Shown: piece after piece, positions 12,005-54,135 of the stretch | Position numbering within the stretch: the stretch's first letter is position 1 | Layout of the letters: each line of letters begins with the position of its first letter | DNA from: Candidatus Micrarchaeota archaeon | GTDB taxonomy: Archaea > Micrarchaeota > Micrarchaeia > Anstonellales > Bilamarchaeaceae | NCBI GenBank assembly: GCA_014730115.1 | Contig: WJIU01000027.1 | Coordinates: forward strand, 1 to 56,346 | Length of the DNA stretch: 56,346 nt | Direction of reading: 5' to 3' | Position numbers and translations under genes: made by a program | The notes under the pieces: model-generated | Seen by the model: the letters and a program-made list of their open reading frames with translations, nothing else | What the model was told of the DNA's origin: nothing | The model's database searches: none

Positions 12005-12248
12005 ACTTATCCCGCTCCCTTCTACGTCTGGCCTGCTCCTTTTTCTTTTCAAAAATGCCGCGGTGCTTTGCACAGCTGATGCAGTAGTAGACTGTTTTGA
12101 ATTCGGTGTAGGTTACGTTTTCCTCACCTTTCATATCAGTAGTAAAATGGGTTCTCTTGTTGTATTCAACAGCCTTGTCCCGCGGCACTGCTCTGCCGCA
12201 ATTAGAACAAGTTTCAAGCCGTTCTCTTCCCCTTCTTCTTTTTCCCAT
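11997..12248 (-). CDS. rps26e: 30S ribosomal protein S26e (eS26)
   Basis: MGKRRRGRERLETCSNCGRAVPRDKAV...YYCISCAKHRG carries the eS26 zinc-ribbon-like CxxC...CxxC pattern and a basic N-terminus. Confidence 0.8.
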   Translation of the reverse strand: MGKRRRGRERLETCSNCGRAVPRDKAVEYNKRTHFTTDMKGEENVTYTEFKTVYYCISCAKHRGIFEKKKEQARRRRERDKYG

Positions 12249-12254
12249 AGTGCC

Positions 12255-18709: not shown

Positions 18710-20671
18710 CTATTCCAGCTCTTCATAAGCCATGGAGATGTCAACATCCTTTATGTCCTGTTTTGCCAGTGGCTTGTCCTTCAGCTGGGGAAGCTGCTCC
18801 TCGTACCTTGGCTTGTCGGCCTTGTAGAAAACGCCTATCGGCACTTTTTTGTATTCAGTTTCCTCACCCTCGTAAGCCTTTTTCAGTGCAGCCCACCTGT
18901 CACCCTTGTCGTGCCCGTCCCCCAGCTTGTATATCCTTTCCTGGAACCACGGGTAGGTGTTCAGCTTGTTGAAGGTGACGCAGGGCTGGAAGACATCAAT
19001 GAATGAGAACCCCTTATGCTCAATTGCCTGCCTGATAAGCCCTTTCAGGTGCGCCGGGTCGCCTGCAAAGCCCCTTGCAACAAAGGTCGCTCCGCCATTG
19101 ATTGCGGTCACCAGGGGCCGGAACGGCTCCTCAATCACGCCCCAGGGAGTGGTCTTTGTCTTCATCCCCTTCTGGCTGGTGGGCGAGGCCTGGCCGGTGG
19201 TAAGCCCGTAAATCTGGTTGTTGTGAACGATATAAGTGAGGTCATAGTTTCTCCTCATTATGTGGACAAAATGCTGGACCCCTATTCCGTAGCCGTCGCC
19301 GTCTCCCCCTACTGCAATTACATTCAGGCTGGCATTGGCTAGCTTTACCGCGGAAGCCACCGGCAGGGGCCTGCCGTGTATTGCCTCAAAGCCGTAGGTA
19401 TCCACGTAATGGGGGAGCTTGCTGGAGCAGCCAATCCCTGAAACCAGCACGGTCTCGTGCCGGGGCAGGTTCAGGTCAGCAAGCGCTCCCTTGAGCGCAG
19501 TGATGAGGCCGAAGTTGCCGCAATTGTGCAATGTCGCATTCTGGGTGACGTAGGATTCAGCATCTTCCACCTCAAGGTTGAAGACTGTTCCGTCATGTTG
19601 GTACTTCTCGATTCTCTTGATGGGAAGATAGACATAGTTACTGTCCTTTATTATCAGGGACCTCGGGTTCCCCTCTTTTCTTGACGCTACTCCCATTATG
19701 CCCATCAACCTGTTGAAACAATCCGGTTCTTTGACAAATAAGGAATAGCTCTTTTTGTGGATCCCATGTGGTTCCTCGCTATGTATGGAAGGTATTATCC
19801 CCTGCCTGAGGAGCAGAAGTTTAATCTGGTTACATAGTGCGAGTGATATTGTTTTGTAGGATGCCTCCACATCGGAAATCCAACCATCGCCTCTCCAGAG
19901 CGCCTTCAGAAGTTCTGCCTGTTTCTCTGGAGGTAAAATCATCGCAAACTGAGGGATTTTTTTATTTGCAGCGTCGCTTCCAAGCAGATTTCTGAATGCC
20001 CGGGCTAGCAAGGAAGAACTGGCATGTATTTCAATTGTGTTCTTTTCACTTCTCTCTTTAGTTGTTGCCTTGAGTCCGAATAGGTTTGATATTATGGATT
20101 CAACATCCTGCACATATTCTCTTTCCCTGATGTTAAACGTTAAGACCACTTCTCGTTTGTGTACGTGCCCTTCTGCAAGATAATATCCCAATAACCGCAT
20201 GAATTCTGGTCCTACTGCTACTGATTCTGGAATCGCGGTGCTCTTTCTATCCATATCATTTACATCATAATTCATTCTGACCTGTTCAACATCCGTAATT
20301 TGCTTTGGAATTGGGTATGCAACATAATCTCCGACTTTGAGGTGCTCTGCTTCCACCCATTCCAGCGGGAATTCGGAATTATTCCTTTTTTTCTGTACTC
20401 TCCTTGAGATGTATAATGGGTGCTCATGTGTAAGGTCGCAAGTTCCAAAATTTTTCACAGTAACTTTATACATATCCCCTATGTGGTGATGACTCATCAC
20501 CTCTGTTATTCTGTGATATTCACCATCAAACCCCAGCACCTTGTCTCCAACTTCGAGATCCTTTATCTCGATAATATCCGGATTTGTGTGTATTAAAGTA
20601 TCAGGTAATACACATCCCGGGCACCACTGAATCTTTTCCTGAACATCCAAATCCTTTATAGTAACACCCAT
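18710..20671 (-). CDS. 2-oxoacid:ferredoxin oxidoreductase beta (TPP-binding) subunit, interrupted by an intein
   Basis: The true start MGVTIKDLDVQEKIQWCPG lies 10 nt after the alpha-subunit stop. The exteins join to WCPG|CGNFG...GIGCSS...VGGDGDGYGIG...HNNQIYGLTTGQ, giving 289 aa after splicing. The track start 20824 overlaps the alpha gene. Confidence 0.9.
   Translation of the reverse strand: MGVTIKDLDVQEKIQWCPGCVLPDTLIHTNPDIIEIKDLEVGDKVLGFDGEYHRITEVMSHHHIGDMYKVTVKNFGTCDLTHEHPLYISRRVQKKRNNSEFPLEWVEAEHLKVGDYVAYPIPKQITDVEQVRMNYDVNDMDRKSTAIPESVAVGPEFMRLLGYYLAEGHVHKREVVLTFNIREREYVQDVESIISNLFGLKATTKERSEKNTIEIHASSSLLARAFRNLLGSDAANKKIPQFAMILPPEKQAELLKALWRGDGWISDVEASYKTISLALCNQIKLLLLRQGIIPSIHSEEPHGIHKKSYSLFVKEPDCFNRLMGIMGVASRKEGNPRSLIIKDSNYVYLPIKRIEKYQHDGTVFNLEVEDAESYVTQNATLHNCGNFGLITALKGALADLNLPRHETVLVSGIGCSSKLPHYVDTYGFEAIHGRPLPVASAVKLANASLNVIAVGGDGDGYGIGVQHFVHIMRRNYDLTYIVHNNQIYGLTTGQASPTSQKGMKTKTTPWGVIEEPFRPLVTAINGGATFVARGFAGDPAHLKGLIRQAIEHKGFSFIDVFQPCVTFNKLNTYPWFQERIYKLGDGHDKGDRWAALKKAYEGEETEYKKVPIGVFYKADKPRYEEQLPQLKDKPLAKQDIKDVDISMAYEELE
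19523..20614 (-). mobile_element. 364-aa intein with LAGLIDADG homing-endonuclease domain
   Basis: It starts at Cys1 (CVLPDTLIHT), has a block-B TxxH (DLTHEH) and two LAGLIDADG-type motifs (LLGYYLAEGHV, ALWRGDGWIS), and ends ...ATLHN followed by +1 Cys. The insert looks visibly more AT-rich than the flanking exteins. Confidence 0.85.
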
Positions 20672-20681
20672 GTCATCACCT

Positions 20682-22490
20682 CTAAAGCCCGTGCCTCTGC
20701 GGATTGTAGTATTCCAGGTCCTTTTCCTCATGTATGCGGATTTCCTTCTTTCCTTTGTATCCTGAATCCCTGAGCTTTTCGACCTGCTCTGCAATCTGCT
20801 CTGCAAAGAACTGCCTGCCGTCATATTTCAGGACAAGGAAGTCCGGTTCCCATCCGCAGTATTCCTTTAGCATTCCCGCAAACTGGCCGGTTGAGTTGTT
20901 TTCAATCATGACCGTGTTCCTGCAGCCCTTCAGCACTCCCAGGACTTTTTCCCTGTCCAGTGGATAAAGGCAGGAGAAGTGCACCACATTCACGTCAATC
21001 CCCTTCTTTTTGAAGATTCCCATGGCATCCAGCGCAGGAAGCTTCTGGGAGCCCCAGCAGACAACTGTTGCCTCTGCATCCTCCGGTCCATAAGTTTTAG
21101 GCGCTTCCAGGTCCTTCAGCAGGCCATTTATTTTCGCCGCCCTTTTGTCCACCTGCCTGGTTCGCATGATAAAGCTTTCTGTGCTGAACCCGGTCTCATC
21201 ATGCTCATAGGAAGTTCCCACGTGCATGCCGTTGGGTGTGCCCGGGAATACCCTTGGGGACACGCCGCCTTCGGTTAATTCATACCTTTTGAAGCGGGTG
21301 TTCGGCTCCAGTGGGGGGAGGTCCTCTGCAATCCTGCCCCTCTGGATGCTGATTCTGCTTTCATCAAAACGTTCAGATGAGAACACCGTCTCTGCCAGGA
21401 ACTTGTCTGATATCACTATCACCGGAAGCTGGTATTTTTCCGCCAGGTTGAATGCCTCTGCCCCCAGCTGGAAGCATTCCCCAACATCCCCCGGCGCCAG
21501 CACCACCCTCAGGAACTCTCCCTGGGATGCGTGCAGTGCAAACCTCAAATCGCCCTGCTCGGTCCAGGTGGGCATTCCCGTGCTGGGTCCCACCCTCTGG
21601 ACAAGCACTGCCACAACAGGGGACTCGGAAAGCGCTGCCATCCCCAGGGCCTCCACCATCAGGGAGAATCCCCCGCCTGATGTTCCGGTCATGGACCTGA
21701 CCCCGGCAAAGGAAGCACCAACAGTGTAGTTCATTGCCGCTATTTCATCCTCGGTCTGCTTTACCACGATATTGAACTTTCTTTCATTTGCAAAAAGGTA
21801 ATGAAGTATGGATGAGGCCGGTGTCATCGGGTATGCGGAATACATCTTCATCCCGCCTTTTACTGCTCCGAGTGCAATTGCCTCGTTTCCGGACACCAGC
21901 ATCTTCCTCTGCTCAGAAAGCGGCTTGATTTTCTGCTTTAAATCAACTTCCTTTGACTTTACGTATTCATAACCTGCTTTTGCAACCGCTATGTTCTTTT
22001 CCACTATTTCCTTTCCCTTTCTGCCAAATTCGTCTCTGAGCACCCCGGAAAAGATTTCCAGTGGGTAATCTACCATGCCCAGGATGGCGGCAAGGGCTGC
22101 AACATTCTTCATCTTGATGTTTCCGCCTGCCTCTTCAGTCAGCTTTCCCAGGGGCACGGCCAGGGTCTTTACCCCTTCAGGGATGTCAAACCCGCTGATA
22201 TCCTCTGCCTCATCATAGAGTATAACGCCGCCTTTGCCGACAAAGTCCTTATGATAAAACACGGCATCCCTGTTGAGGGCCATTACAATATCGCATCTCC
22301 CGGGAGGCGAATGCACCGGGTGGGTTCCGGTGGTGACCTGCACCATGTTGTGCCCTCCCCTTACCAGGGACGGGTATTCGGGATACCCCACAACATTATA
22401 GCCCCCGCGGGTAAAGCATTTTGCAATCATTCTTCCGGCGACCATCACTCCTGCGCCGGCCTGTGCGCCAATCCTGATACTAAACAACAT
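20682..22490 (-). CDS. 2-oxoacid:ferredoxin oxidoreductase alpha subunit (fused gamma-alpha domains)
   Basis: 602 aa. The N-terminal gamma-like domain is RIGAQAGAGVMVAGRMIAK...GYPEYPSLVRGGH. The alpha core is GNEAIALGAVKGGMKMYSAYPMTPAS. This is the two-subunit layout seen in Sulfolobus/Aeropyrum-type OFORs. Confidence 0.9.
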   Translation of the reverse strand: MLFSIRIGAQAGAGVMVAGRMIAKCFTRGGYNVVGYPEYPSLVRGGHNMVQVTTGTHPVHSPPGRCDIVMALNRDAVFYHKDFVGKGGVILYDEAEDISGFDIPEGVKTLAVPLGKLTEEAGGNIKMKNVAALAAILGMVDYPLEIFSGVLRDEFGRKGKEIVEKNIAVAKAGYEYVKSKEVDLKQKIKPLSEQRKMLVSGNEAIALGAVKGGMKMYSAYPMTPASSILHYLFANERKFNIVVKQTEDEIAAMNYTVGASFAGVRSMTGTSGGGFSLMVEALGMAALSESPVVAVLVQRVGPSTGMPTWTEQGDLRFALHASQGEFLRVVLAPGDVGECFQLGAEAFNLAEKYQLPVIVISDKFLAETVFSSERFDESRISIQRGRIAEDLPPLEPNTRFKRYELTEGGVSPRVFPGTPNGMHVGTSYEHDETGFSTESFIMRTRQVDKRAAKINGLLKDLEAPKTYGPEDAEATVVCWGSQKLPALDAMGIFKKKGIDVNVVHFSCLYPLDREKVLGVLKGCRNTVMIENNSTGQFAGMLKEYCGWEPDFLVLKYDGRQFFAEQIAEQVEKLRDSGYKGKKEIRIHEEKDLEYYNPQRHGL

Positions 22491-22624
22491 AAAATCACTT
22501 CTGCTGGGGTAAGGGTTCTGGTGAATATTTTTTAACTATAACGTAATTCTTCCCGTCGGTTGTCGTTTTCAGGTGTTTAATATACATTTTTATACATTTT
22601 GCAACTATTATACACAGTGGTCTA

Positions 22625-26263: not shown

Positions 26264-26363
26264 CGGGCCCGGAGGGATTCGAACCCCCAACCTAGTGGTT
26301 TCTCCAGCAATCAGGAGAAGGCTTCCGAAGCCACTCGCCCTGTCCAGGTTAGGCCACGGGCCC
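26264..26363 (-). tRNA. tRNA-Arg (anticodon TCG) with a 25-nt canonical 37/38 intron (26300-26324)
   Basis: Acceptor GGGCCCG/CGGGCCC, anticodon stem AGTGG/CCACT, loop CTTCGG|...|A. The BHB helix is CUUC:GGAG, with bulges GG|A and AA|A. T loop is TTCGAAT. Confidence 0.8.
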
Positions 26364-26460: not shown

Positions 26461-26823
26461 ATGGGAAAAGCTCATGCTTTCTTTGGATGCAAGGCCGGGA
26501 AGGAAAAAGTCCAGAGGGAGCTGGAAAAGTTAAAAACATTTCTTAAAATTCCCCCGCAGCTTGAGCTTTCCCTGAAAAGAGGCCCCAAGAGCGTCGGGGG
26601 AGGCATCACCCTTCTTGCAATAGCCACTGCAGCGGATTCAGCAGGAACCGAATATGCGCTTGAAGCCAGCTGCAGGGGGAAATCCAATGAGGAAGTGGCT
26701 GATGAGCTTGCCAAGCTTATGAATCTGTTTCCCCGTACCGACCTTAAGGGAAAAGCAGAGGAACTCAGCTTCCAGATAGTATTCAAGAACGGGGACGAAT
26801 ACGTTTTCCGGGACTCTACCTAG
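26461..26823 (+). CDS. Hypothetical protein (120 aa)
   Basis: ATG 26461 follows an AT-rich promoter-like region. The track start 26410 lies inside that AT-rich stretch. I recognise no family. Confidence 0.55.
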   Translation: MGKAHAFFGCKAGKEKVQRELEKLKTFLKIPPQLELSLKRGPKSVGGGITLLAIATAADSAGTEYALEASCRGKSNEEVADELAKLMNLFPRTDLKGKAEELSFQIVFKNGDEYVFRDST

Positions 26824-27712
26824 TGAACACTTCGCATCCGTCTTTTGTAACCATCAGGGTATGCTCAGCCTGGGATACCAGGCCCCTGCTCACTTCTCTC
26901 AGAATCGGGTATCCTTTGATGAAATGGTTCTGCAGGAGTTCTTTCAGGGCAGCGCTTACAAGGAGTTTTGACTTGAATTCCTTTCTTATCCAGCGCTCTG
27001 CAAAGGGAAGAGTGCCGTAGTTTTTCACCACAAAGTCTATGATTTTCCTGGACTGCCTCATCCTTACCTTGGACGGCATGTAGATGGAGAATATCTCCAC
27101 CTGCTCAAGGTCCTCCACATAGCCCGACCCGGTTGTGGAGAACGGCTCCACCGCAAAGATGTCCCCCTCCTGGAGCGCATAGGGGTCGTCGGTTTTTACA
27201 TTCGGGATTTCCACCCCTGCATGCAGCTGGTTGGACTTTATCATGTGTCCGGAAAGATTGGCGATTGGCTTGAAGCCATAGCCCTTGATTGTCTCTTCAA
27301 TCACACCGCCAACTTCTCCTACCCTGACTCCCGGCTTTATTGTATTAATTGCATTTTCAAGGGCCTTTTCCGATGATTCCACCAGATTTTCATGCTTTCC
27401 GCTGAGGTCAATTGTATAGGCGGTGTCGGACAGGGCTCCGTTAACCTCCATGCCCAGGTCCACCTTGACCATTTCATCTTCCTTCAGGACCCGGGTGGAA
27501 TCAATTTCGGGAGTGTAGTGCGCGGCGATGTCATTTATTGAAATATTAACCGGAAATGCGGGTCGGGCCCCCTCATCCGCAATCATCTTTTCTATGGTCT
27601 CGGCAATGTCCAGCAGGGATTCGCCGACCATAATCAGGCTCTTGCTTTCCTGGCGGATTTTTGAGGCCAGCTTTCCCGCTTCCCTGAAATTCTGGAGTTC
27701 ATCATTATCCAT
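26816..27712 (-). CDS. map: Methionine aminopeptidase, type 2 (archaeal)
   Basis: The pita-bread fold metal ligands are in order (DLG..., D in VNGALSDTA, GHMI, FAVEPF, EHT) together with the type-2 helical insert. ATG 27712 (MDNDELQNFREAGK) is preferred. Confidence 0.9.
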   Translation of the reverse strand: MDNDELQNFREAGKLASKIRQESKSLIMVGESLLDIAETIEKMIADEGARPAFPVNISINDIAAHYTPEIDSTRVLKEDEMVKVDLGMEVNGALSDTAYTIDLSGKHENLVESSEKALENAINTIKPGVRVGEVGGVIEETIKGYGFKPIANLSGHMIKSNQLHAGVEIPNVKTDDPYALQEGDIFAVEPFSTTGSGYVEDLEQVEIFSIYMPSKVRMRQSRKIIDFVVKNYGTLPFAERWIRKEFKSKLLVSAALKELLQNHFIKGYPILREVSRGLVSQAEHTLMVTKDGCEVFTR

Positions 27713-27857
27713 GCAAAAAACCTCCCTGTATTTATGTGGGGGATGCACTTAAAAGGTTCTACGATTGTGGCATAAATTTAAATATCATGGAAACGTAAGG
27801 AATACAGGCGTTTGAAAACCTCCAAATAAGTAGTGTTTCACTTAAATCCTGATTGTA

Positions 27858-33281: not shown

Positions 33282-33412
33282 TGCCGCAGGCCTGATTTGA
33301 ACAAGCGACCCCTCCGTATCTGATAGGAGTAAATTCCGTGGGAATCTTCAGCTTCACCGATTCATTTTTTTCAAAAGGAATCTGGAGTGCTCTCCCACTG
33401 AGCTACTGCGGC
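33282..33412 (-). tRNA. tRNA-Phe (anticodon GAA) with two introns: 31 nt at 30/31 (33353-33383) and 28 nt at 37/38 (33318-33345)
   Basis: Exons are GCCGCAGTAGCTCAGTGGGAGAGCACTCC | GCTGAAG | ACGGAGGGGTCGCTTGTTCAAATCAGGCCTGCGGCA. Spliced, they give a 72-nt cloverleaf with stem CTCCG/CGGAG and loop CTGAAGA. Both junctions sit in 3-nt bulges flanking 4-bp helices. Confidence 0.7.
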
Positions 33413-33695: not shown

Positions 33696-33920
33696 ATGTC
33701 TTTTGTGACGATACTTGCGGAGTGGTTCTCCAGGCTTCATTTCCTTGCAGCCCTGGCAATGTTCTTTTTCATTGCTCTCATGGTGCTGGAGGAAGACCGC
33801 TTCATCCGCGCGCTTATGCTGCTTCCGGTGGTCCTTTTTTACACCCTGTCCAAGGTGATGTATTCAATAGACCAGAAGGCTTCCACTGACCGGATTGTGG
33901 AGAAATACAAAAAGGGCTAG
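33696..33920 (+). CDS. Hypothetical small membrane protein (74 aa)
   Basis: It has two hydrophobic helices (FLAALAMFFFIALMVL, ALMLLPVVLFYTL). The stop overlaps the uppS stop region. I recognise no family. Confidence 0.4.
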   Translation: MSFVTILAEWFSRLHFLAALAMFFFIALMVLEEDRFIRALMLLPVVLFYTLSKVMYSIDQKASTDRIVEKYKKG

Positions 33921-34624
33921 CGGCCGAACCTTCTTTTTCTTCTGCGATAGGCTTCCAGGGCATCCTCGAAGTCTTCCCTGGAAAAATCAGGCCATAATTT
34001 CTTGCAGAAGTAAAACTCGCTATAGCAGGTCTGCCATGGAAGAAGCCCGGACAGCCTCTGCTCCCCGGAAGTCCTTATGACCAGGTCAGGGTCGGGCAGG
34101 CCCCTAGTATAAAGATGGCTGCTGATGGTTTCCTCATCCACCTTTTTTTTGCCCTCCGCAATTATCTCGTTTACCGCATCCACAATTTCATTGCGTCCGC
34201 CATAAGAAAGCAGAAGGTTGAGCTGGAAAGGCCCGTTGTTTTTTGTTTTTTCCTCAATCTTCCTGAAAAGGGCAATGATATCCTTGGGAAAAAGATGGAT
34301 TCTTCCCAGGAATTTGACACGTATCTTCCTGCCTTCATCATCCCTGGTGGAAAGCCCTTCCAGAAGGTTTTTCTTGAAAAGCCCGAACAGGTTTTCTATT
34401 TCCTGGTTGTCTCTCTTGAAATTCTCGGTGCTGAAGCCCCACATTGTGACTATTCGTATGTTCTTCTTCTTGCACCACTTCAGCACCTCTCCTATGTGCT
34501 CTATGCCTATGCGGTAACCTTCCTTTCTGCTGATTCCCTTCTCCCTGCTCCATCTCCGGTTTATGGTTCAGTGAATTCCATCCGGGATGATAGCAATATG
34601 CCCGGGAACTTCAGGCTCGTCCAT
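33917..34624 (-). CDS. uppS: Undecaprenyl/di-trans,poly-cis-polyprenyl diphosphate synthase (cis-prenyltransferase); coding sequence = complement(join(33917..34560,34576..34624))
   Basis: Exon 1 is MDEPEVPGHIAIIPDG. Exon 2 is NRRWSREKG...GEVLKWCKKKNIRIVTMWGFSTENFKRDNQEIENLF...RTSGEQRLSGLLPWQ...RRFG. The joined length is 693 nt, giving 230 aa. Confidence 0.85.
34561..34575 (-). other. Candidate 15-nt bulge-helix-loop intron inside uppS (boundaries ambiguous by 1-2 nt because of flanking A residues)
   Basis: The RNA UUCACUGAACCAUAA contains an in-frame UGA and splits the invariant DG|NRRW motif. The flanks pair as CCGG/CCGG and AUGG/CCAU with a 3-nt AAA bulge. Confidence 0.6.
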
Positions 34625-34681
34625 TGGCTTTGCACCTCCCTGGTTGGTTAAGAAAAAAACCTGTTTATAAACAAATCGCTG

Positions 34682-39559: not shown

Positions 39560-42500
39560 ATGGGAGGTTCACCGTTGAGATATACAAAAAAACCAGGCAA
39601 AAATAGAGAACATTTAAATTCTGATTCTGGTAGATGTTTTGGTAGCCGGCTGAGGGGTTTCTTCAGGGGCGCAATGCTTTATTCGGTATTGACATCTACC
39701 GCAATGGGTGCTTATATGGTTCCGGGTGTAAGAGAAGCAGCTGCAGAGGAAAGACAGAGGGACGTAAGGCCTTTACAGGCCATAAGGGACACGCTTGTGG
39801 AACAGCTTGGTGCTGTCCGGTCAAGGATGCAGGAAATGGAAAGGCAGGGCTTTCCGGCCAGTGTGGACTGGTCAGACCCGACCATGGGCCCGCTGCTGCA
39901 GACTTTGCGCCAGCTTGACCAGCAGCTGAGGCCGTTCAACGACGGCCAGGAAGTAATCCCGTTATCAGGCTCCAGCGACGAGCAGAGGTTCAGGTCGCTG
40001 AACCGCTGGCTTGGAAGGGACCAGGGCTCTCCCCTGGGTGAAGATGCACTCAGGCAGCTTGAAATGAGGGTAACGCTTGCATTTGGTCTTGTTTCTTCTG
40101 ATGCTGCTGCATCCCAGCTTTCAGCTGTCCTGGCAGGAAGGACTCCCGAAGAGCAGCCTGCACCTGCTGAAGCAGAGGCTGAGGAAGCCGCTCCTGTTTT
40201 TGACGAATCAAGAAGGGCATACTACACCGGGCTTATGAACCAGCTGGATGTTATAGCCGGCCATGCCAGAAGAAGGCAGGACCGGAGGGCTGCCGCCAGG
40301 CTTCGCGACAGGCTTCGCGAGCAGCTGGAAAATGATTCGCCTGACTCCAGCGCCCTGGAAACCATTGACCAGGGCCGTGAAAGGAGAGGCCGGCGCGTAG
40401 GAGGCGCTTCCCGCCTTATAGCCCGCGGATATGAAGAAGCCCAGCAAAGGGCCGACCGCGCAAGGGTCAGGGAAGAAACAAGGGCACATGAAGAGGCAGT
40501 GGCAAGGGCCAACCAGGAAAGGGAAGAGGCCCGGGCCGGCGGGGAGGAGCTTGCAGCTTCCGAAACCCGCCCGCTTCTGGAAGGCCTGCAGGGCATGAGA
40601 GAGCAGCACCGGGATTTGGTCAATAATCTTATTAATCTGCTTAACAACAGCTACCGGCTTGGGGAAGGCCAGAGGGAGAGGCTGATAAGAGCCCCTGGAG
40701 AAGAAGGTGAGGCGGGGCTTCTCTGGCAGGCCCGGGACGCACTCCAGCAGGGAAATGACAGGCGCGCCAGCGAGCTTTATGCACAGGCCAACCAGCTATA
40801 CACTTCTCAGCAGACCCTTTACCGGGCAATGCTCAGTGAATTTGTTGTTCCTGTTGCACGTGAAGCTGCAGGCACTGCTTCCGACGTTCCCGGAATTGAA
40901 CCGCTGCAGTCCCGCATGAGGGAGCGGGCCGAGGCGGCCCAGGGACATCTTGACGAAGGCGACATGTCTTTCTTCTATACCTGGAACCTTTATCTTGCGA
41001 CCTGGTCCGAGTACCAGGCAATGAGCGTGCTTGAGGACTTGTGGCAGGAGGCAGACCGGCTTGTGCCTGAGGGCCATGGGTCCAGAGGCCGGCTGGAAGA
41101 GAATCTTGGCTCAGTGCTGCAGGCAATCTCAACCCGTGGCTACAATCCTCTTCAGAGGTATGAGGACAGTGACCCCATAGTTGTGGGGCTTTTAAGGGAT
41201 TTCAGAAGTGCCACCGGCAATCCTTCTGCCACCAGGGAAGAGCTGGAGCAGGCAATCAGAAGCAATCCCGACTGGAGCATCCAGCTTGCACTTTATGATT
41301 TATACAGGAGGACAACCCATGCTGCCTACGAGCCTTCCGGAGGCTTAAGCACCGAGCGCGAACAGAACCCTGCAAGGTACCACCTTGCCAGAATGAGAAC
41401 AGCCAGGGCACTTTTCAGGGATGACTACCAGCACTATTATTATGCAGAGTGGACCAATGTTGACAACAGATTCACAGACGGCCGTGCATTCCTTGACCAG
41501 ACGGTGCAGCTTGCCAGGGAATCAGGCATGGAGCAGAACGACCCGCTTATAGAATACTGCGAGCAGCGTCTGCAGATGCATCCTGATGCAGGCGGAATGA
41601 GCGATGAGCAGAAAAGCCAGACCGGAGACATGTTCTATGAGATGGCCATGGGCCTGGCGGCAATCAGGGAAGCGGAGCTCTGGATTTCCGATGCAAACAG
41701 CCAGCTGAGAGGGGCACATGTTGATGATGCGACCATGGACCGTGCAAGGGCACTGCTCCAGCGGGCAAGGCTGGAATTTGAAGAAAACTTTTCGGTCATG
41801 ACTCCCGGCACGGACAGCAACAGGGTAAGTTCGGAAGAAAGGAGCGTTGCATGGGACTTCACCGGCCTGCCCGGAGAGATATCAGAGAGCTATGCTGTCC
41901 CCCCTATGTTGCATATGAACTTTCCCAGGGAAATTGCTGATGATGTGATACATCTCGTGGCACCGCAGGCCTATCATGAGCTCGAGACATATTCCACCAA
42001 CGACACCGGCAACCTGATTCTTGAAGGCAGGGTGGATTACCTGGTTGCAAGATCCGAAGCAGAGAACCAGGTCGGGGAGCAGGTAACTGACGAAATAGAA
42101 AGAATGGTTCAGCTGAGAGAAATTGATGAGAGGCTTGAGGTCAGGAGCACCGTTGTTTCCACAAGGGATGATGGCCTGGAAAGGGGCACGGTATCAGAAT
42201 ACATGTTCCTTAGGACTATTACCGCCCTTAGAGACCAGGGGAACTTCGGGGCCCCCACGCTTGCCGACCGCCAGCGCGCCTGGGCAAGGGCCATGGAGGT
42301 TCTCAGCCCTGAGATTGGAAGGGCAACTGTTCTTGGCAGTGACAGGCAGGGAATAAGGCAGGTGCGCACTACCCCCTCCTACCCGAGGCTTACAGTTGGA
42401 GTGGCCGACTTTGTACATCAGGATGCAAGAGCAGCATATCCGCAGGGGGAGCTTTATACAGAAATGCGCAGGCAGGTATTCCTTCACACCGATGATAACG

Positions 42501-43651
42501 TTACGCCGCTGCTCAGGCATCTTGGCGTTGACCCTGCAAGGGGCCAGGGCATGACAGACATGGACCCGTCCATGACCGGAGTGAGAGGATTCCTCAGGTC
42601 CATGGACCAGGTTGCCAGCGGGTACAGCGCAGGCAACCCGCAGACATCCCTGCAGTCCGGAAACGAGGTGCTGGTAGGCGTTGCGACAGAAAGGCTGGAA
42701 GAGCTCAACCGCAGGCTCAGCGAGCGCAGGGAGGTTGACGGCGTCTCAATCAGCGAGCTTTCAAGGTCCACCGACCCCCGCTCATATATAGTAAGAAGGG
42801 CAGTTGCAGTAAGGGACCGGGAGGCAAGAAGGATAGCTGAATACCGCACGTCCCTGGGCCAGGACCTTGTGGAGCCGGGCACCAACCCCAGGCTGAGCAT
42901 ACTGGCCCTGGAGAATGCCATTCACAGTCTTTCGCATGATGTAGGGCCCATAAGAGAGCCTCCTGAGCAGGTAAGGTTCTTTTCCCAGGGAACTGATTTG
43001 GAAGAAGACATAGTCAACAGCATAAGGGTTGCAAGGGCAAGGATTGATGTCCAGGCAGACCCGACCGAAGGGCTTGCAGTTTCCCTTGAGCAGTATGAAC
43101 GCGCCAACGGCCGCCAGACCCTGCTCTACAACTGGGTATGGTGGGTTGACCTGGGAAGGGACGACTGGTTCCTGCTCAACCCCAACTGGGATACTTATCT
43201 GGGCTCGGGGCCCTGCAACGGATGGGTGCTTGACCCTGAGTCAGGAATGCCGGTAAACCCGGAAACAAGGCTGCCCAGCAGCCCCAGGACAGGAGAGTCG
43301 GTGCCCGGCGCTGAGCCGGTGGAGCTGCCCCAGCAGTTCATTGCAAGGCTCATGGAAATGCCGGAAGGAAGCGGACGCTACGCCGCGGTGCGTGTAAGGC
43401 CGCCGGGTCGCGAGACCGGTGCAGAGGCAACAATGACTGTGGAATGGGAGCCGGTACGGCTTTCAAACGGCAGGCTGGACATTCTGTTCCGTGAGCTTCC
43501 GGGAGAGGGAGGCACACACACCCTCCAGCCGCTGCGGGCGGACATGACTGCAGATGTGGTCAGGGACACCTGCACCAGGACAGTCAGGCCCGAGAGCGTA
43601 AGGCCGGTATCCGGAGATGCTGCGGCAAGGGCAATCGTGCGTCCAAGATAA
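39560..43651 (+). CDS. Giant (1363 aa) Arg/Glu/Ala-rich, predominantly helical protein of unknown function with one weakly hydrophobic N-terminal segment
   Basis: It is an uninterrupted 4.1-kb ORF, and the antisense ORFs are all 145 aa or shorter. It is preceded by a ~350-nt AT-rich spacer with TATA-like boxes. I recognise no motif. Confidence 0.75.
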   Translation: MGGSPLRYTKKPGKNREHLNSDSGRCFGSRLRGFFRGAMLYSVLTSTAMGAYMVPGVREAAAEERQRDVRPLQAIRDTLVEQLGAVRSRMQEMERQGFPASVDWSDPTMGPLLQTLRQLDQQLRPFNDGQEVIPLSGSSDEQRFRSLNRWLGRDQGSPLGEDALRQLEMRVTLAFGLVSSDAAASQLSAVLAGRTPEEQPAPAEAEAEEAAPVFDESRRAYYTGLMNQLDVIAGHARRRQDRRAAARLRDRLREQLENDSPDSSALETIDQGRERRGRRVGGASRLIARGYEEAQQRADRARVREETRAHEEAVARANQEREEARAGGEELAASETRPLLEGLQGMREQHRDLVNNLINLLNNSYRLGEGQRERLIRAPGEEGEAGLLWQARDALQQGNDRRASELYAQANQLYTSQQTLYRAMLSEFVVPVAREAAGTASDVPGIEPLQSRMRERAEAAQGHLDEGDMSFFYTWNLYLATWSEYQAMSVLEDLWQEADRLVPEGHGSRGRLEENLGSVLQAISTRGYNPLQRYEDSDPIVVGLLRDFRSATGNPSATREELEQAIRSNPDWSIQLALYDLYRRTTHAAYEPSGGLSTEREQNPARYHLARMRTARALFRDDYQHYYYAEWTNVDNRFTDGRAFLDQTVQLARESGMEQNDPLIEYCEQRLQMHPDAGGMSDEQKSQTGDMFYEMAMGLAAIREAELWISDANSQLRGAHVDDATMDRARALLQRARLEFEENFSVMTPGTDSNRVSSEERSVAWDFTGLPGEISESYAVPPMLHMNFPREIADDVIHLVAPQAYHELETYSTNDTGNLILEGRVDYLVARSEAENQVGEQVTDEIERMVQLREIDERLEVRSTVVSTRDDGLERGTVSEYMFLRTITALRDQGNFGAPTLADRQRAWARAMEVLSPEIGRATVLGSDRQGIRQVRTTPSYPRLTVGVADFVHQDARAAYPQGELYTEMRRQVFLHTDDNVTPLLRHLGVDPARGQGMTDMDPSMTGVRGFLRSMDQVASGYSAGNPQTSLQSGNEVLVGVATERLEELNRRLSERREVDGVSISELSRSTDPRSYIVRRAVAVRDREARRIAEYRTSLGQDLVEPGTNPRLSILALENAIHSLSHDVGPIREPPEQVRFFSQGTDLEEDIVNSIRVARARIDVQADPTEGLAVSLEQYERANGRQTLLYNWVWWVDLGRDDWFLLNPNWDTYLGSGPCNGWVLDPESGMPVNPETRLPSSPRTGESVPGAEPVELPQQFIARLMEMPEGSGRYAAVRVRPPGRETGAEATMTVEWEPVRLSNGRLDILFRELPGEGGTHTLQPLRADMTADVVRDTCTRTVRPESVRPVSGDAAARAIVRPR

Positions 43652-43684
43652 CATTCATTCAATGGGATAATACAAGGAGGTGAA

Positions 43685-43876
43685 ATGGGTGAAAACCAAG
43701 AGAACGAACAGCTTGAAACAGCTGGATACTACACAGGAAAGAGCCACCGGAGCTTGCAAAAAGTTTTCCAAATGGCTGCTTGCCTCAGCTGTAGGTCTGG
43801 GCTCAGTTGTCGCGTCACCGGGGCAATTTTTAAACAATGCCGCCCCAATACCATTAGCATTCACTTTATATGGTGA
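43685..43876 (+). CDS. Small ORF between the giant gene and the next gene; reading frame ambiguous
   Basis: AAGGAGGTGA lies at 43674-43683. ATG 43685 gives a 63-aa Cys-rich peptide whose TGA lies inside the GGTGA SD of the next gene. The alternative GTG 43689 frame gives a signal-anchor-like peptide (KKFSKWLLASAVGLGSVVASPG) ending at 43880. Confidence 0.3.
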   Translation: MGENQENEQLETAGYYTGKSHRSLQKVFQMAACLSCRSGLSCRVTGAIFKQCRPNTISIHFIW

Positions 43877-43882
43877 CTAAAA

Positions 43883-46132
43883 ATGGCGCAGGCGCGACGG
43901 GTACCGGAAGCAGAAAGAGAAGCAGGAGTTTATACTAACGAGCAGCTTATGCGTATTGTAGATGCAACAATGGGACCAGCTGACAGTGTGGAGCATCCCC
44001 GGAATGCCCCTACACCAAGGGCTTCGGCAGAGGACGCTTTGCAGATGTGGCAGGTCCTTCAGCTCCTGGAAAGGGAGCAGCCGCCTGCAGAAGGCACTGA
44101 CGACCGCAGGCTCTATGACCGCGCAGCGAGCGTGCTCAGCGAAGGGTCGGGACAGGTTGAAGATGCAAGGTACGCGCTCCACATGGCAATCCGCGATGTC
44201 CTGAGAATGACTTCGGAGAGGGTCCAGAGCCCGAATGATGTGGGGGGCCTTGCCGAGCCGCTTAGGAACATGCTGTTTACCATTCAGGACAGGGCCAACA
44301 GCCTGGAGCGTGACACTTATCTGGCCTACCGCCCGCCGGCAGTCAGCAATGCAATAGCGAATATCATTGATACCATTGGAGGCGGAAGGCCCGGGGAAGA
44401 GGGCCTTCAGAGAACCAGGCCGGGCGAGCCCGAGCCGTTCCAGGTAAGGACCAGGGAACTGCGGGCCTTTGAAATGCCGATAAGGGACATAGGCAGAATC
44501 CACCTTATTGAATCAGCCGGCGAGCTTCCCTATCTCGCGGCCGCAGGAGAGGTTTCTGCCGAGCTTGAATCCATTTTCGGAGGAAGCCACGAGGCTGCGC
44601 AGCAGGGCGCTGATGCCCTTGCCCGCGCCATTGAGATGCGGGCAAACGGGGAGGCCCAGCACATGGGGTGCAACGAGCTCCGGGAAGCGCTTGAGCAGGT
44701 TTCCCATCCCCAGCTGGTAAACAATGATATGTTCCGGTCTGCACTGGAGGATTTAAGGAACAACCAGAGGGATGCTGCAATTGACAAGCTTCTCAGCCTT
44801 ACTGACACTCCCCTGAACGCGCTTATTGATACTGCGAACAATGTAGAGATAGTCAGGGTGGACCAGAGGGCCCTTGTAGTGTATCACGCCGGAGTGACCA
44901 TGAGATTCGACTTCGGCGGCAACATGGAGGCGTTTACCAGATATCTCAGAACAGAGGACGAAAGGAACTTTGAGCCAAGGCTCCTCTACTTCGGTCTGGG
45001 CCTTTATTATGAGATGCTTCTCATCTCCGGCTGGAGGCGGGAAGGCATGCTGGACGTAGAGACCGGAGAGATGACCGAACAAGGTGAAAGAACAAGAATC
45101 CGGGGAACCGGACATGCCGCCACCACTACCCTTTCCCTTGGAGTGGGAAGCTCCATCCGGGGAGAGCCGGTGGAGTGGGTTGTCCACTGCAACTTCGGCT
45201 ACAGGTACAGGGAGCTTTCCCGGGAAGATGTTGGCGTTGAGACATCCTATGGAACGGAAAGGACTCTTCCTGAAGGGCAAAGAAGGGTGCACGAGCCTTA
45301 CATCGGATTCTGGGGCCTTGAGGTAAGGATGCCCGGGCGTGGCTCCCGCAGGCCGGTTGCAAGAATCATGCCCGCAAGAATGGGGCTGGGATTTGTTGGA
45401 AGGCCGGACAACGTGCTGGGATACGCAACCTGGAGGCAGAACCCTGTCCAGGAAGGGGGCTTTACCCTTCAGCTGGAGGAAACTGCACAGATTTCATATC
45501 TTCTCAGGCAGCTTTACCTGACTGGAGAGATTAATGCAAGGCTCATCCACCAGTGGGAGAACGGAATGGCGCTTATGGGCGGCCCCGGAATAAGGGTCGA
45601 CGTAAGGGGAATGGACATTGAAGGCCAGCCTACTGTTGCTTCCATTGAGTCATACGGGGAACTGGCGTACAGGCCCCTGCCCTGGCTTACTGTCTCTGCC
45701 CGCGGAGGATACTTTGTGGAAAGGGGAGGCCCTGAATGGAACCGCATTCCCGACAATTACTTCCTGGGAGGAAACGTTGCCATGGACTTCGGCCAGGTGG
45801 GCGGAAGGATTCCTCTGAGCACCACTCCGGTGAGGATGGAAGTCACCGAGCCGGTAAGAAGCGATTTCCTGTGGGCGGCAAGATGGGCAGATGAAGCCGC
45901 CCCTGAGCAGCTTTCAGGGGATGAGGCCAGCAGGATGGCAACCGACCTTGCAAACCTGATTGAAAGGCAGGCCGGTACTGACACCTGGAGCTTTGGAGGC
46001 TCGGACCGGTACAATACCGCGCTGGAGCACCTGAGGGCAGGAAGGCTGCGCGAGGGCATTGACGCCCTGAGGCGGATTGACGCATTCCGCGAGCTGGAGC
46101 AGCGCCTGGAAGTCAGGGAAGAGGAAAGGTGA
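43883..46132 (+). CDS. Hypothetical 749-aa protein: helical N- and C-regions flanking a ~320-aa region with a beta-barrel-like alternating strand pattern
   Basis: GGTGA lies 6 nt before the ATG. There is no signal peptide. The central strands are rich in G/Y/F/W/R (LYFGLGLYYEML, TTTLSLGVGSSI, WVVHCNFGYRY, YIGFWGLEVRM, LTVSARGGYFVE, YFLGGNVAMDF). Confidence 0.75.
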   Translation: MAQARRVPEAEREAGVYTNEQLMRIVDATMGPADSVEHPRNAPTPRASAEDALQMWQVLQLLEREQPPAEGTDDRRLYDRAASVLSEGSGQVEDARYALHMAIRDVLRMTSERVQSPNDVGGLAEPLRNMLFTIQDRANSLERDTYLAYRPPAVSNAIANIIDTIGGGRPGEEGLQRTRPGEPEPFQVRTRELRAFEMPIRDIGRIHLIESAGELPYLAAAGEVSAELESIFGGSHEAAQQGADALARAIEMRANGEAQHMGCNELREALEQVSHPQLVNNDMFRSALEDLRNNQRDAAIDKLLSLTDTPLNALIDTANNVEIVRVDQRALVVYHAGVTMRFDFGGNMEAFTRYLRTEDERNFEPRLLYFGLGLYYEMLLISGWRREGMLDVETGEMTEQGERTRIRGTGHAATTTLSLGVGSSIRGEPVEWVVHCNFGYRYRELSREDVGVETSYGTERTLPEGQRRVHEPYIGFWGLEVRMPGRGSRRPVARIMPARMGLGFVGRPDNVLGYATWRQNPVQEGGFTLQLEETAQISYLLRQLYLTGEINARLIHQWENGMALMGGPGIRVDVRGMDIEGQPTVASIESYGELAYRPLPWLTVSARGGYFVERGGPEWNRIPDNYFLGGNVAMDFGQVGGRIPLSTTPVRMEVTEPVRSDFLWAARWADEAAPEQLSGDEASRMATDLANLIERQAGTDTWSFGGSDRYNTALEHLRAGRLREGIDALRRIDAFRELEQRLEVREEER

Positions 46133-46137
46133 ATCAA

Positions 46138-48267
46138 GTGAAATCAAAAATTCTTTTTTCTGTTCTGCTTTTGTTTTCTGCAGCATTTGCGTGGTCCACT
46201 GATACCTATTTTACATACCCCCTTGTTTCGGGATATTATGTTGACAGCGACCTGACCCTGACAACAGACTTTACACTGTCTCTTGTTTCAGGGGAAGTGG
46301 CAGAGGGAAATCCCTCCAATCTTCAGACCGGGGATGTGGTCTGCTCAGGGGCAGTGCTGAGGGCAACCCCAACCTATAATGCCAAATGGGCCACCTCGGA
46401 TTTTTCAGCAAAGTCTCTTTACCCCTCATGCGCGGCAATATACTGCCCGTCCATGATTTCCGGAGGCCCGGTCCAGAACGATAATGACGTTTCCTGGCTT
46501 TCCTCCACTGTTTTCAATGAGCACGATGAGTGGGGAGACGATTACGGGCTCCTCTTCGGCTGGGATGCGGTGTCCCAAAACATGTATGATGACCTTACCC
46601 CGCTTGTAAACCAGCCTGTAACCTACAAGAACGTTACCGGGGAATACCCCGACAAAAGGGCCGGCGTGGGCATCTACTGCAAGGGGGACATGGAGATTGT
46701 CGATGGAACTTCAGTTAAGTCCTCCAATGAGATGCCAAGCACCGGCAGTGCTGATTTTGCAGTTACCTCAACAGGAACCCATGGGATTTCCACCCGGCTT
46801 TCCGACACCGAATGCATCGCGGCAATAGTGAAGCACCCTCTGGACATATCCAGCCATCCCGGATTCTTCAGGCTCTATTACTTCAGCACCGGGCAGCCAT
46901 CAATACCCTCTGCAGTTGGTACTGAGACTATTTCAATTACGGTTCAGGAATCGGGAGGCGCCTGCAACTTCCACGAGACTGATGTGGAGGCCAGCAGCTC
47001 CCTCAGTGATGAGGACCTTATCATGATTAAGGTCACCTTTGAGAACGGTGGTGACCCCATACAGATTACTGATGTGTCCAGCTCCAGTGCGGATTTCACG
47101 GTGTCAGAATTTCCGACGCTGCTCTGCGACATACTCGGCTTTCCGCCGTCCTTCTGCCCTGCATCCAACGGCTTTGACGAGGATGTCTCCTCAGGAGGAA
47201 CCCATGACGTTTATGTCCTGGTGGAAAGAAATGTCGGGGCAAGCGGAGGCACGGTGCTGACCTTTGATGCCCAGACCGTTTCAGGGAGCTGCGGAGGCGC
47301 AGCAACCTGCTCGGAGGATGTTGACCTCGGGGATTCTGTCCCGATATTATGTGAGATAGACCCTGATGAGCTTACCTATGGCACACTGGAAGTGGCTGAA
47401 TTCCTTGTGTACTGCGAGAACCTTGCCGGAGACGGCATATCCTGTGTCGGCGACGACTGGTACTTCAATGACGGAATATCCGGAGGCTTTGTGGAAAAGG
47501 ACAATACTCATGCATGGGCATATCCCACTTCGTCCCCGGGCTCCAGCGGAACGCTCAACTATGAATCAGGAATAGCCCACTGCCTTTCAGACATTGACGT
47601 TGTGTCCCCCGGAGATTCACCCGGAGACTATGAATGCGAGCTTGTGCCTTCCAGTGCCGAGTTGGAGACCGGAGACACCCAGGCGTTTGTGCTTAACTGC
47701 TTCCACGAGGGCTCGGCTTCAGAGCCGGACAGCGTGGACTATGACCTCATAGATGGCGTCGACGGTTCTCTCAGCGGGGAGAGCACCAGCGGAGTTGACT
47801 TTGAAGCGGGCTCGGACAGCACCGGACAGCTGAGGGCATTCGCCTACTGGAGCATCCCCGGAGACGACCCGATAATGGGCGCAGTTGCCCTTGCTGACAT
47901 TACCATCGGGGCAGGGGGAAACGAAACCAACGAGACCGGCGGAGATGACGATGACTACTATGACGACGGCTCCAGCATGCACTGCAAAATCGGAGGAGGG
48001 CCGCTGAATCCATTCCCCGGCTCCAGCGGATGGCTTACTGTTATGTGCGGACCTGATTATGATATTCCCTGCGCCACCGCGGACTGGGATGCAGAGCCGC
48101 CTGGAATAGCATCAGTAAGCGGGGACGAGAACGGAGCGTCCTATACCATCAACGGCGAGCCCCAGGAGTCAGGAAAAATCTGGGCAACCGTAACCTATGA
48201 TGGAGAATCAGGGGACTGCTTCCTGCCATTCCAGATTGGGCTCCCGGACTGCTGGGAGTTCACGTAA
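46138..48267 (+). CDS. Secreted acidic, Cys-rich protein of unknown function (~709 aa)
   Basis: GTG 46138 lies 5 nt after AAGGTGA, which overlaps the upstream stop. The signal peptide is MKSKILFSVLLLFSAAFA. The protein has many Cys, a D/E/G/S-rich composition, a DDDDYYDD run, and no C-terminal anchor. Confidence 0.75.
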   Translation: MKSKILFSVLLLFSAAFAWSTDTYFTYPLVSGYYVDSDLTLTTDFTLSLVSGEVAEGNPSNLQTGDVVCSGAVLRATPTYNAKWATSDFSAKSLYPSCAAIYCPSMISGGPVQNDNDVSWLSSTVFNEHDEWGDDYGLLFGWDAVSQNMYDDLTPLVNQPVTYKNVTGEYPDKRAGVGIYCKGDMEIVDGTSVKSSNEMPSTGSADFAVTSTGTHGISTRLSDTECIAAIVKHPLDISSHPGFFRLYYFSTGQPSIPSAVGTETISITVQESGGACNFHETDVEASSSLSDEDLIMIKVTFENGGDPIQITDVSSSSADFTVSEFPTLLCDILGFPPSFCPASNGFDEDVSSGGTHDVYVLVERNVGASGGTVLTFDAQTVSGSCGGAATCSEDVDLGDSVPILCEIDPDELTYGTLEVAEFLVYCENLAGDGISCVGDDWYFNDGISGGFVEKDNTHAWAYPTSSPGSSGTLNYESGIAHCLSDIDVVSPGDSPGDYECELVPSSAELETGDTQAFVLNCFHEGSASEPDSVDYDLIDGVDGSLSGESTSGVDFEAGSDSTGQLRAFAYWSIPGDDPIMGAVALADITIGAGGNETNETGGDDDDYYDDGSSMHCKIGGGPLNPFPGSSGWLTVMCGPDYDIPCATADWDAEPPGIASVSGDENGASYTINGEPQESGKIWATVTYDGESGDCFLPFQIGLPDCWEFT

Positions 48268-53944: not shown

Positions 53945-54135
53945 GCAGGAGTAGCAAAGCCTGGTCAAATGCGCAGGACTTAAGGAAACTTTCCTTATGC
54001 CTTTCAAAGGGTAAAGTTTCATCAAACTTCCTAAGGGAAAACCGATGATTTCATGTTTATTCCCTTTTGGCAGAGGATGCGTTTAAGCAATCCTGTGGCT
54101 TAGTGTCTTCGAAGGTTCGAATCCTTCCTCCTGCA
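53945..54135 (+). tRNA. tRNA-Leu (anticodon TAA) with a 105-nt canonical 37/38 intron (53985-54089)
   Basis: Acceptor GCAGGAG/CTCCTGC, anticodon stem CAGGA/TCCTG, loop CTTAAG|...|A. The BHB helix CUUA:UAAG is perfect, with bulges AG|G and CA|A. It has a long variable arm and T loop TTCGAAT. Confidence 0.8.

Follow-up and report, generated by a model that had tools for sequence, protein, structure and literature searches.

A candidate bulge-helix-bulge-type intron within the catalytic motif of uppS in Micrarchaeota

The essential lipid-carrier gene uppS analyzed here lies on the minus strand of a 56,346-nucleotide (nt) stretch of DNA from Candidatus Micrarchaeota archaeon (assembly GCA_014730115.1, contig WJIU01000027.1), the whole of which is referred to below as the window, and it is interrupted within its catalytic motif by a short insert. 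Read from the ATG at 34624, the minus-strand open reading frame (ORF) gives MDEPEVPGHIAIIPDG, then IH*TI and then NRRWSREKG..., continuing in a single frame to the TAG at 33917-33919, with an in-frame TGA contained in a 15-nt insert between DG and NRRW of the motif; sequence and translation agree on this with the initial annotation of the DNA. The stop codon of an upstream gene with DUF1246 and DUF1297 domains, which from the domain names we take to be PurP-like (purP), lies 57 nt before the ATG. A Shine-Dalgarno-like GGAGGTG ahead of the same ATG supports a translation start at exon 1 and not an internal start past the insert. The elements of the locus are listed below, with their basis in brackets.

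34633..34639, minus strand: Shine-Dalgarno-like GGAGGTG, 8 nt upstream of ATG 34624 (read from the sequence)
34576..34624, minus strand: uppS exon 1, codons 1-16 (MDEPEVPGHIAIIPDG) plus the first base of the Asn codon (sequence; HIAIIPDG kept in all relatives)
34561..34575, minus strand: candidate 15-nt bulge-helix-bulge (BHB)-type intron UUCACUGAACCAUAA, with an in-frame UGA, phase 1 within the Asn codon A/AC (sequence, fold, comparison)
33917..34560, minus strand: uppS exon 2, AC of the Asn codon and RRW... to TAG, 214 codons plus stop (spliced ORF against PF01255)
34582..34585, minus strand: outer helix 5' strand CCGG, Pro codon plus first base of Asp (pairs with 34556-34559)
34578..34581, minus strand: central 4-base-pair (bp) helix, 5' strand AUGG, exon (pairs with CCAU at 34563-34566)
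34575..34577, minus strand: 5' bulge or loop AA/U, predicted 5' splice site after the second nt (fold, cut register)
34563..34566, minus strand: central helix 3' strand CCAU, intron (fold, comparison)
34560..34562, minus strand: 3-nt 3' bulge AA/A, predicted 3' splice site after the second nt (fold, comparison)
34556..34559, minus strand: outer helix 3' strand CCGG, third base of Asn plus Arg codon CGG (fold, comparison)
34545..34600, minus strand: whole splice-site hairpin with the extended exon-exon helix UGCU.UCAUC / GAUGG.AGCA (RNAfold)

At the RNA level, positions 34585-34556 of the minus strand read CCGG-AUGG-AAUUCACUGAA-CCAU-AAA-CCGG, and the pairing initially proposed for them, CCGG with CCGG and AUGG with CCAU, is recovered by RNAfold. 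Folding of 34545-34600 (minus strand) gives -18.6 kcal/mol, to be compared with a mean of -8.9 +/- 2.5 for dinucleotide shuffles (z = -3.9, with none of 200 shuffles as stable). In the minimum-energy structure a long outer helix joins exon to exon; the 3' side bears the AAA bulge, AUGG is paired with CCAU, and two A's stay unpaired next to a marginal 3-bp UUC/GAA hairpin. The window thus displays BHB geometry, i.e. an extended CCGG/CCGG helix, the AAA bulge, AUGG/CCAU and AA(U) followed by a loop or mini-hairpin, in the relaxed bulge-helix-loop form and not as a canonical BHB. At its outer end (alignment columns 2-6 with 41-45) the exon helix does not keep its register across homologues, and this portion is not claimed for the motif.

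Cutting after the second unpaired nt on each side takes out 34561-34575, exactly 15 nt, and leaves CCG GAU GGA AAC CGG AGA UGG, which encodes PDGNRRW, within an ORF of 230 amino acids (aa), as had been predicted. Only with the 15 nt removed does this ORF match Pfam PF01255 (Prenyltransf) from end to end (profile positions 1-219 of 219, 259.6 bits), the family of the cis-prenyltransferase or undecaprenyl-diphosphate synthase. The residues P14, D15, G16, N17, R18, R19 and W20 are invariant in 14 close homologues and conserved in at least 90% of 120. As the insert is flanked by A's, shifting both cuts by one nt towards the 5' end yields an identical mature uppS sequence.

The same rule could be applied to the tRNA genes of the window, where Rfam and ARAGORN with introns enabled, together with structures derived by hand and by script, give three intron-containing genes with four introns:

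26264-26363, minus strand: tRNA-Arg(UCG), 25-nt canonical BHB intron at 37/38 (26300-26324), central helix CUUC/GGAG
53945-54135, plus strand: tRNA-Leu(UAA), 105-nt intron at 37/38 (53985-54089), central helix CUUA/UAAG
33282-33412, minus strand: tRNA-Phe(GAA), intron 1, 31 nt at 30/31 (33353-33383), central helix CACU/GGUG
33282-33412, minus strand: tRNA-Phe(GAA), intron 2, 28 nt at 37/38 (33318-33345), central helix CUGA/UCAG

In all four cases, cutting after the second bulge nt produces a 7-nt anticodon loop with U33, G37 and A38, and the resulting identities agree with the rest of the molecule (e.g. the long variable arm of Leu), hence the rule is validated inside this window. The initial annotation had the rule right, although it counted three tRNA introns instead of four in three genes. 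The BHB of the second tRNA-Phe intron (outer helix CUCCG/CGGAG) is complete only once the first is removed, which suggests ordered splicing of the two; the intron at 30/31, as read from its structure, would show that the host enzyme handles non-canonical sites. The identities given by ARAGORN with introns on, namely SeC(UCA) for Arg(UCG), Gly(CCC) for Phe(GAA) and Val(UAC) for Leu(UAA), were rejected, its introns being placed 1-2 nt off; for tRNA-Arg the displacement is 2 nt, and the BHB-based cut gives UCG with G37 and A38. The tRNA-Leu(UAA) gene sits in an 838-nt ORF-free stretch and is missed by Rfam at the gathering threshold as well as by default ARAGORN.

In species-representative genomes the closest uppS relatives are all found in Micrarchaeota metagenome-assembled genomes (MAGs), with 61-70% identity, while closer ones (77-84%) are present in a large protein collection. 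A protein-guided, unbiased scan of the species genomes gave 17 translated Micrarchaeota uppS loci, of which 4, besides the window, carry inserts between DG and NRRW (33 nt in L010, 63 nt in L015 and a frame-shifting 26 nt in both L016 and L017), the other 13 being uninterrupted. In a second step, species genomes and metagenome contigs were scanned with two DNA patterns, one with exon bases fixed and the other defined by amino acids only (I-I-P-D-G...N-R-R-W-A); a pattern derived from the alignment, IPDGNRRW, which by construction does not match interrupted genes, yielded L035, and one truncated protein traced to its contig completed the intron-bearing set. This set comprises 31 distinct genes, the window plus 30, nearly all labelled Micrarchaeota, and in every one the insert lies exactly between DG and NRRW, in phase 1 of the Asn codon. 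Sequences that carry members of the set include JACRGD01, the MFD01689 bins, SRR7615342 and OY970229.1, the last being a complete chromosome with the L156 intron. The 31 lengths are 13, 13, 14, 15, 15, 17, 17, 18, 20, 23, 23, 26, 26, 28, 28, 28, 31, 32, 33, 33, 33, 35, 37, 37, 40, 40, 41, 41, 41, 42 and 63 nt. Intron interiors are unrelated in sequence and length, making up about 20 unrelated types by sequence; in one pair (L233 and L236) with proteins 97% identical and a ratio of nonsynonymous to synonymous substitution rates (dN/dS) of 0.034, the inserts differ by a 1-nt indel.

The set includes a second, divergent UppS group that has EGH in place of EGY after NRRW. Its five genes all have 13-18-nt introns at this site and are, by the labels as deposited, L159 (Micrarchaeota), L172 (a MAG of Aenigmatarchaeota) and L201 (an uncultured archaeon), together with L209 and L229 on metagenome contigs that bear no label. 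L172 and L201 share about 40-43% identity with the main UppS group. So, judging from these sequences, the uppS intron would either span a deep divergence or have moved between lineages.

One architecture is common to all 31 loci: exon pairs with exon in an outer helix, the 3' bulge has 3 nt, the central helix has 4 bp, and a bulge or loop lies on the 5' side; the fold check made on the first set found it in 15 of 15. In 31/31 the exon tetranucleotides ahead of AYGG and past the bulge are paired, as CCGG/CCGG or CCUG/CAGG, and the exon ends two nt after AYGG in all of them. The four intron nt located two positions ahead of the 3' junction pair with AYGG at 4/4 positions in 15 loci, at 3/4 in 15 and at 2/4 in one. 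The 3' bulge is AAA in 27 and UAA in 3 of the 30 homologues scored, and AAA in L238, which was read directly. The nt following the Gly codon (GGN) is A in all 30 scored and likewise in L238, as the cut register demands, and the cut rule restores PDGNRRW in every locus. Concerning the 5' side, the BHB is fully canonical in 10 of the 31: the 5' bulge has 3 nt, and immediately after it an inner helix of 3-8 bp stacks on the central one, as exemplified by L192 (AUGG-AAA-AUAACGG...CCGUUAU-CCAU-UAA). The remaining 21, the window included, have the 5' site in a larger loop, corresponding to the relaxed HBh' or bulge-helix-loop class. According to the literature, such relaxed motifs are cut by broad-specificity endonucleases only.

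Two of the paired positions covary without exception. In the central helix, the third base of the Asp codon and the intron nt h3 form C:G in 20 loci and U:A in 11; in the outer helix, the third base of the Pro codon and the first base of the Arg codon form G:C (CCG...CGG) in 25 and U:A (CCU...AGG) in 6. Both pairs make use of synonymous codon positions, and Fisher tests over all 31 loci give p = 1e-8 and 1e-6, shared ancestry being ignored. When the alignment is reduced to its 27 distinct cores, 82.9% of cells are paired, compared with 29-51% after the 3' partners are slid by 1-3 columns, and the two pairs display only double changes (GC 21 and UA 6, CG 17 and UA 10); the covariation score of these cores was reached by none of 500 column shuffles.

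The comparison with uninterrupted genes points in the same direction, since codon choice tracks the presence of the intron. The exon-helix positions are paired 4/4 in only 1 of 20 uninterrupted Micrarchaeota uppS genes, as against all 31 intron-bearing ones (Fisher p = 4e-13). Intron-bearing and intronless genes are interleaved in sequence space, and the closest intronless proteins, with identities computed from the HIAIIPDG motif onward, are the following:

L133: P0005, 95% protein identity
L233 / L236: P0119, 93-94% protein identity
L199: P0025, 92% protein identity
L010: P0073, 90% protein identity
window uppS: twelve closest relatives at 77-84%; closest P0003, 85% protein identity

The allele pairs at 90-95% protein identity are L240 with L133, L241 with L233/L236, L242 with L199 and L243 with L010, the first-named locus being the intronless one. 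At 93-95% identity, the intronless allele of a pair departs from its intron-bearing partner precisely at those synonymous positions from which the helix is formed, e.g. CCC GAC GGA AAT CGC in L240 versus CCG GAC GGA A/AC CGG in L133. The insert is present in some relatives and absent in others, with compensatory changes in the helices. One intronless gene, L011, still has CCGG...UCGG and is possibly a case of recent intron loss.

These observations suggest the following mechanism. After transcription, the coding sequence on both sides of the insert would pair, CCGG with CCGG, extended by UCAUC with GAUGG, and a 4-bp helix would form between the exon AUGG (AYGG in relatives) and the 3' part of the intron, CCAU, with AAA as a 3-nt bulge on the 3' side and AAU left unpaired on the 5' one. 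The tRNA-splicing endonuclease EndA would recognise the two unpaired regions, with the 4-bp helix between them, and cut after the second unpaired nt on each side, i.e. after A34576 and after A34561. The tRNA ligase RtcB would then join the exons, rebuilding the Asn codon (A/AY), with a predicted junction in the joined mRNA of ...CCGGAUGGAA to ACCGGAGAUGG. The joined mRNA would read ...PDGNRRW... and encode the normal 230-aa cis-prenyltransferase, while the unspliced one would yield an 18-residue peptide only. The two enzymes are proposed because of the geometry and because the same rule resolves the tRNA introns of the window.

Overall, we consider that the 15 nt at 34561-34575 (minus strand) most probably represent an archaeal BHB-type intron in the uppS pre-mRNA, with a probability of roughly 0.85. 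The endonuclease-spliced intron that had been suggested from the window gains support from the same-site inserts, the covariation, the absence of the helix in intronless relatives and the purifying selection described below. Several points weigh on the other side. Splicing itself is something we infer from sequence comparison; neither endA nor rtcB was found by Pfam in the window; and the 5' site of the window lies in a 2-3-nt bulge beside a marginal 3-bp hairpin, which is effectively a loop. The central helix is mismatched at one end or at both in 16 of the 31 loci, and the covariation p-values disregard a shared ancestry that reduces the set to roughly 20 independent intron sequence types. 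Furthermore, some of the exon sequence was specified in most of the search patterns, and a look-up of the exact spliced proteins from 10 intron-bearing loci found none of them in a collection of 15 billion proteins, which covers assemblies of public sequencing runs.

The insert might be removed from the RNA by other means, through another nuclease and ligase or through self-cleavage. That the window motif is relaxed and the enzyme identity deduced leaves some room for this, but the conserved features are exactly the recognition elements of EndA, the same rule resolves four tRNA introns in the window, and 13-63 nt are too few for a group I or II ribozyme; we regard it as quite improbable. Group I and group II introns and inteins were rejected as candidates. 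The former possess a ribozyme core of hundreds of nt and inteins an in-frame protein-splicing domain, whereas the inserts have 13-63 nt with stops and frameshifts, and Rfam detects no ribozyme in the window.

Very improbable, too, is translational bypassing of the phage T4 gene 60 type, in which the ribosome would take off at GGA (Gly16), skip the hairpin and the stop, and land before AAC. In favour of this ribosome hopping, a stop lies two codons past the Gly codon, a stable hairpin spans the gap, and the L010 insert ends in GGA, so that its take-off and landing codons would match. However, L010 is the only locus where they do, the window having a take-off GGA and AUA before AAC. The 13-63-nt gaps and the exact geometry fit the needs of EndA recognition and not those of hopping, which leaves unexplained the helix at 2 nt from each junction, the 3-nt bulge and the covarying exon-exon pairing. 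We know of no translational bypassing in archaea.

An in-frame stop in the catalytic motif could also denote a pseudogene, or the insertion scar of a small mobile or palindromic element, and gene callers do output truncated proteins here (P0001, 215 aa; P0036, 205 aa). This is countered by the state of the genes. A stop is reached and a start is within range in 28 of the 31 loci, and every one of these is intact in frame once the insert is removed, the three others being cut by a contig end or having no start in reach. The spliced frames of 27 of the 28 span 229-243 codons, with the start codon 15-26 codons ahead of the junction; that of L167 is open into the upstream gene and its start was not placed. 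Pairwise dN/dS between intron-bearing genes ranges from 0.03 to 0.29, which denotes purifying selection, and exon 1 varies at third codon positions even in the 23 genes whose DNA places it in a different frame from exon 2. HIAIIPDG and a start codon are preserved in exon 1, which in the window is preceded by the Shine-Dalgarno-like sequence, and synteny with the upstream DUF1246/DUF1297 gene is kept. Decay or scarring is thus highly improbable. A two-piece enzyme was likewise considered and rejected: the strictly conserved Asp of DGNRRW would be left on a 16-residue peptide, the next canonical start in the window being 27 codons past the insert.

That the insert is translated, the TGA being read through or recoded to give an IHxTI insertion, is hardly credible. 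It agrees with the 15-nt length, a multiple of three, and an ARAGORN 'tRNA-SeC(tca)' call at 26264-26363 seemed to favour it; as the UCA results from the placement error described above and the BHB of this tRNA gives UCG, that apparent support is removed. A translated, read-through or loop-tolerated insert would need a multiple of three, and yet 23 of the 31 inserts are not multiples of three, with lengths spread evenly over the frames (8:10:13 modulo 3, chi-square p = 0.54 against uniform), which argues that the insert is not translated. In addition, DG and NRRW, which belong to an invariant motif, would be pushed apart by five residues, and the long ORFs throughout the window fit the standard stop-codon set. 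An assembly or sequencing artefact, which a short hairpin-forming insert in metagenome-derived sequence could bring to mind, is practically negligible, given that 30 further assemblies, independent and coming from many projects, have an interruption at this very site, the insert sequence being different in each.

Concerning annotation, the existing gene call for the window uppS (P0001, 33917-34563, minus strand) starts with 'MNRRW...' at an ATA inside the intron, and the NCBI product for the intron-bearing L198 gene (P0036) is truncated as well. Automated annotation systematically loses exon 1, and with it the conserved Asp of the DGNRRW motif.

Among known systems, the nearest is the BHB intron in the pre-mRNA of cbf5, encoding a pseudouridine synthase, in Crenarchaeota (Watanabe 2002; Yokobori 2009, PMC2738675). 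Both introns are short, lie within coding sequence, often have a relaxed BHB, are attributed to the tRNA-splicing endonuclease, are patchy among related species and are linked to a broad-specificity EndA. They differ in the gene, here interrupted at the catalytic DGNRRW site, in the lineage, which is Micrarchaeota and other DPANN-labelled MAGs and not TACK, and in the enzyme, likely of epsilon2 type from the literature as opposed to the crenarchaeal alpha2beta2. Splicing of cbf5 has been shown experimentally, while for uppS it is deduced, and the uppS intron, unlike that of cbf5, is present or absent among genes 93-95% identical in protein. Hence the uppS intron works like the cbf5 intron but, gene and phylum being different, is not a member of the cbf5 intron family. 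No report of introns in uppS or in Micrarchaeota mRNA was found in the literature searched, in which cbf5 of Crenarchaeota is the only gene named for coding-region BHB introns in papers up to 2025, in line with the initial annotation. Its further expectation, that an intron so short and in uppS would be new, holds against this literature; the 15-nt intron is not the shortest, as there are homologues of 13 and 14 nt.

Micrarchaeota (ARMAN-1/2, Mancarchaeum) are reported to have a broad-specificity epsilon2 EndA (PMC5829648), and the non-canonical tRNA introns of ARMAN-2 and Micrarchaeota are cut by it (PMC3488258, PMC5829648, PMC12397907). These tRNA introns resemble those of uppS in phylum, in their relaxed motifs (HBh', hBH, bulge-helix-loop), in size range and in a cut geometry equal to that of the four tRNA introns of the window. 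In uppS, by contrast, the substrate is an mRNA and both strands of the outer helix are coding, so the structure is kept through synonymous codon choice. Another BHB in an mRNA processed by EndA is the 46-nt intron in the 5' untranslated region of Haloferax volcanii HVO_1309 (PMC7714728); it lies in an untranslated leader, the reading frame being independent of its removal, unlike in uppS. Putative 12-bp introns in archaeal virus genes (Peng et al., as cited in PMC2738675) are comparable by description only, being very short, located in archaeal protein-coding genes and proposed as introns; in that account their splicing and insertion mechanism are undemonstrated.

A more distant parallel is offered by eukaryotic HAC1/XBP1, where cleavage by Ire1 and joining by a tRNA ligase (RtcB in metazoa) are regulated by stress. 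The likeness consists in a spliceosome-independent, structure-guided removal of a short mRNA intron that alters the encoded product and is finished by a tRNA ligase. The nuclease there is Ire1 and not EndA, and stress regulation is a eukaryotic feature, none being indicated for uppS. It is conceivable, although we consider it rather unlikely, that the uppS intron is no passive passenger but a mobile or regulated element, the intron and its helix-forming flanking codons moving as a cassette by recombination among the uppS alleles of Micrarchaeota and other DPANN-labelled lineages, and splicing gating the lipid-carrier synthase. Cassette transfer would explain why intron-plus and intron-minus alleles at 93-95% identity differ at exactly three helix-forming synonymous sites; the patchy distribution may otherwise come from precise losses that occurred repeatedly. 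If this joint scenario were true, cell-envelope synthesis would depend on how active the tRNA-splicing machinery is, which would be the archaeal equivalent of control by HAC1/XBP1.

Regarding further interruptions in the window, a de novo BHB scan of its whole length under permissive rules is non-discriminating, with about 2,900 matches against about 2,350 in shuffled sequence; strict rules with an ORF-repair filter leave 163 candidates, among which uppS ranks 21st by energy density, and a second case is neither claimed nor excluded. The candidate split ORFs at 11212-12281, 20979-21729 and 22251-22535 have no Pfam match. The first two, on the plus strand, are runs of same-strand ORFs overlapping by 17-56 nt, in which no convincing BHB was found and which could be frameshifted or interrupted genes. 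Other features of the window are:

18710-20824, minus strand: 704-aa ORF, beta subunit of a 2-oxoacid:ferredoxin oxidoreductase (TPP_enzyme_C + PFO_beta_C), interrupted by an intein at residues ~101-434 (Pfam Intein_splicing plus a LAGLIDADG_3 homing-endonuclease domain)
39560-48267, plus strand: three very large adjoining ORFs (1363, 749 and 712 aa), no Pfam match, G+C 0.56 versus ~0.50 elsewhere
26816-27748, minus strand, and 52698-53654, plus strand: two Peptidase_M24 genes (methionine aminopeptidase / Xaa-Pro peptidase family), both within the 56 kb of this small-genome archaeon

As to what the putative uppS intron means, it would provide a second, independent coding-region case for the tRNA-splicing machinery, in DPANN and with 31 natural variants, so that the phenomenon would not be a crenarchaeal oddity. 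The variants, ranging from canonical BHB to relaxed bulge-helix-loop, constitute a substrate series for probing broad-specificity endonucleases, such as the ARMAN-2 epsilon2 enzyme, which has been crystallised. The recognition structure is built from coding sequence, so that RNA structure would dictate codon choice within a catalytic motif, a case of overlapping constraints, while intron presence and absence at 93-95% protein identity offer an uncommon look at how introns have recently been gained or lost in prokaryotes. For the organisms themselves, since UppS is annotated as an N-terminally truncated protein devoid of the catalytic Asp, the enzyme may be counted as defective when the metabolism of these reduced-genome archaea is reconstructed.

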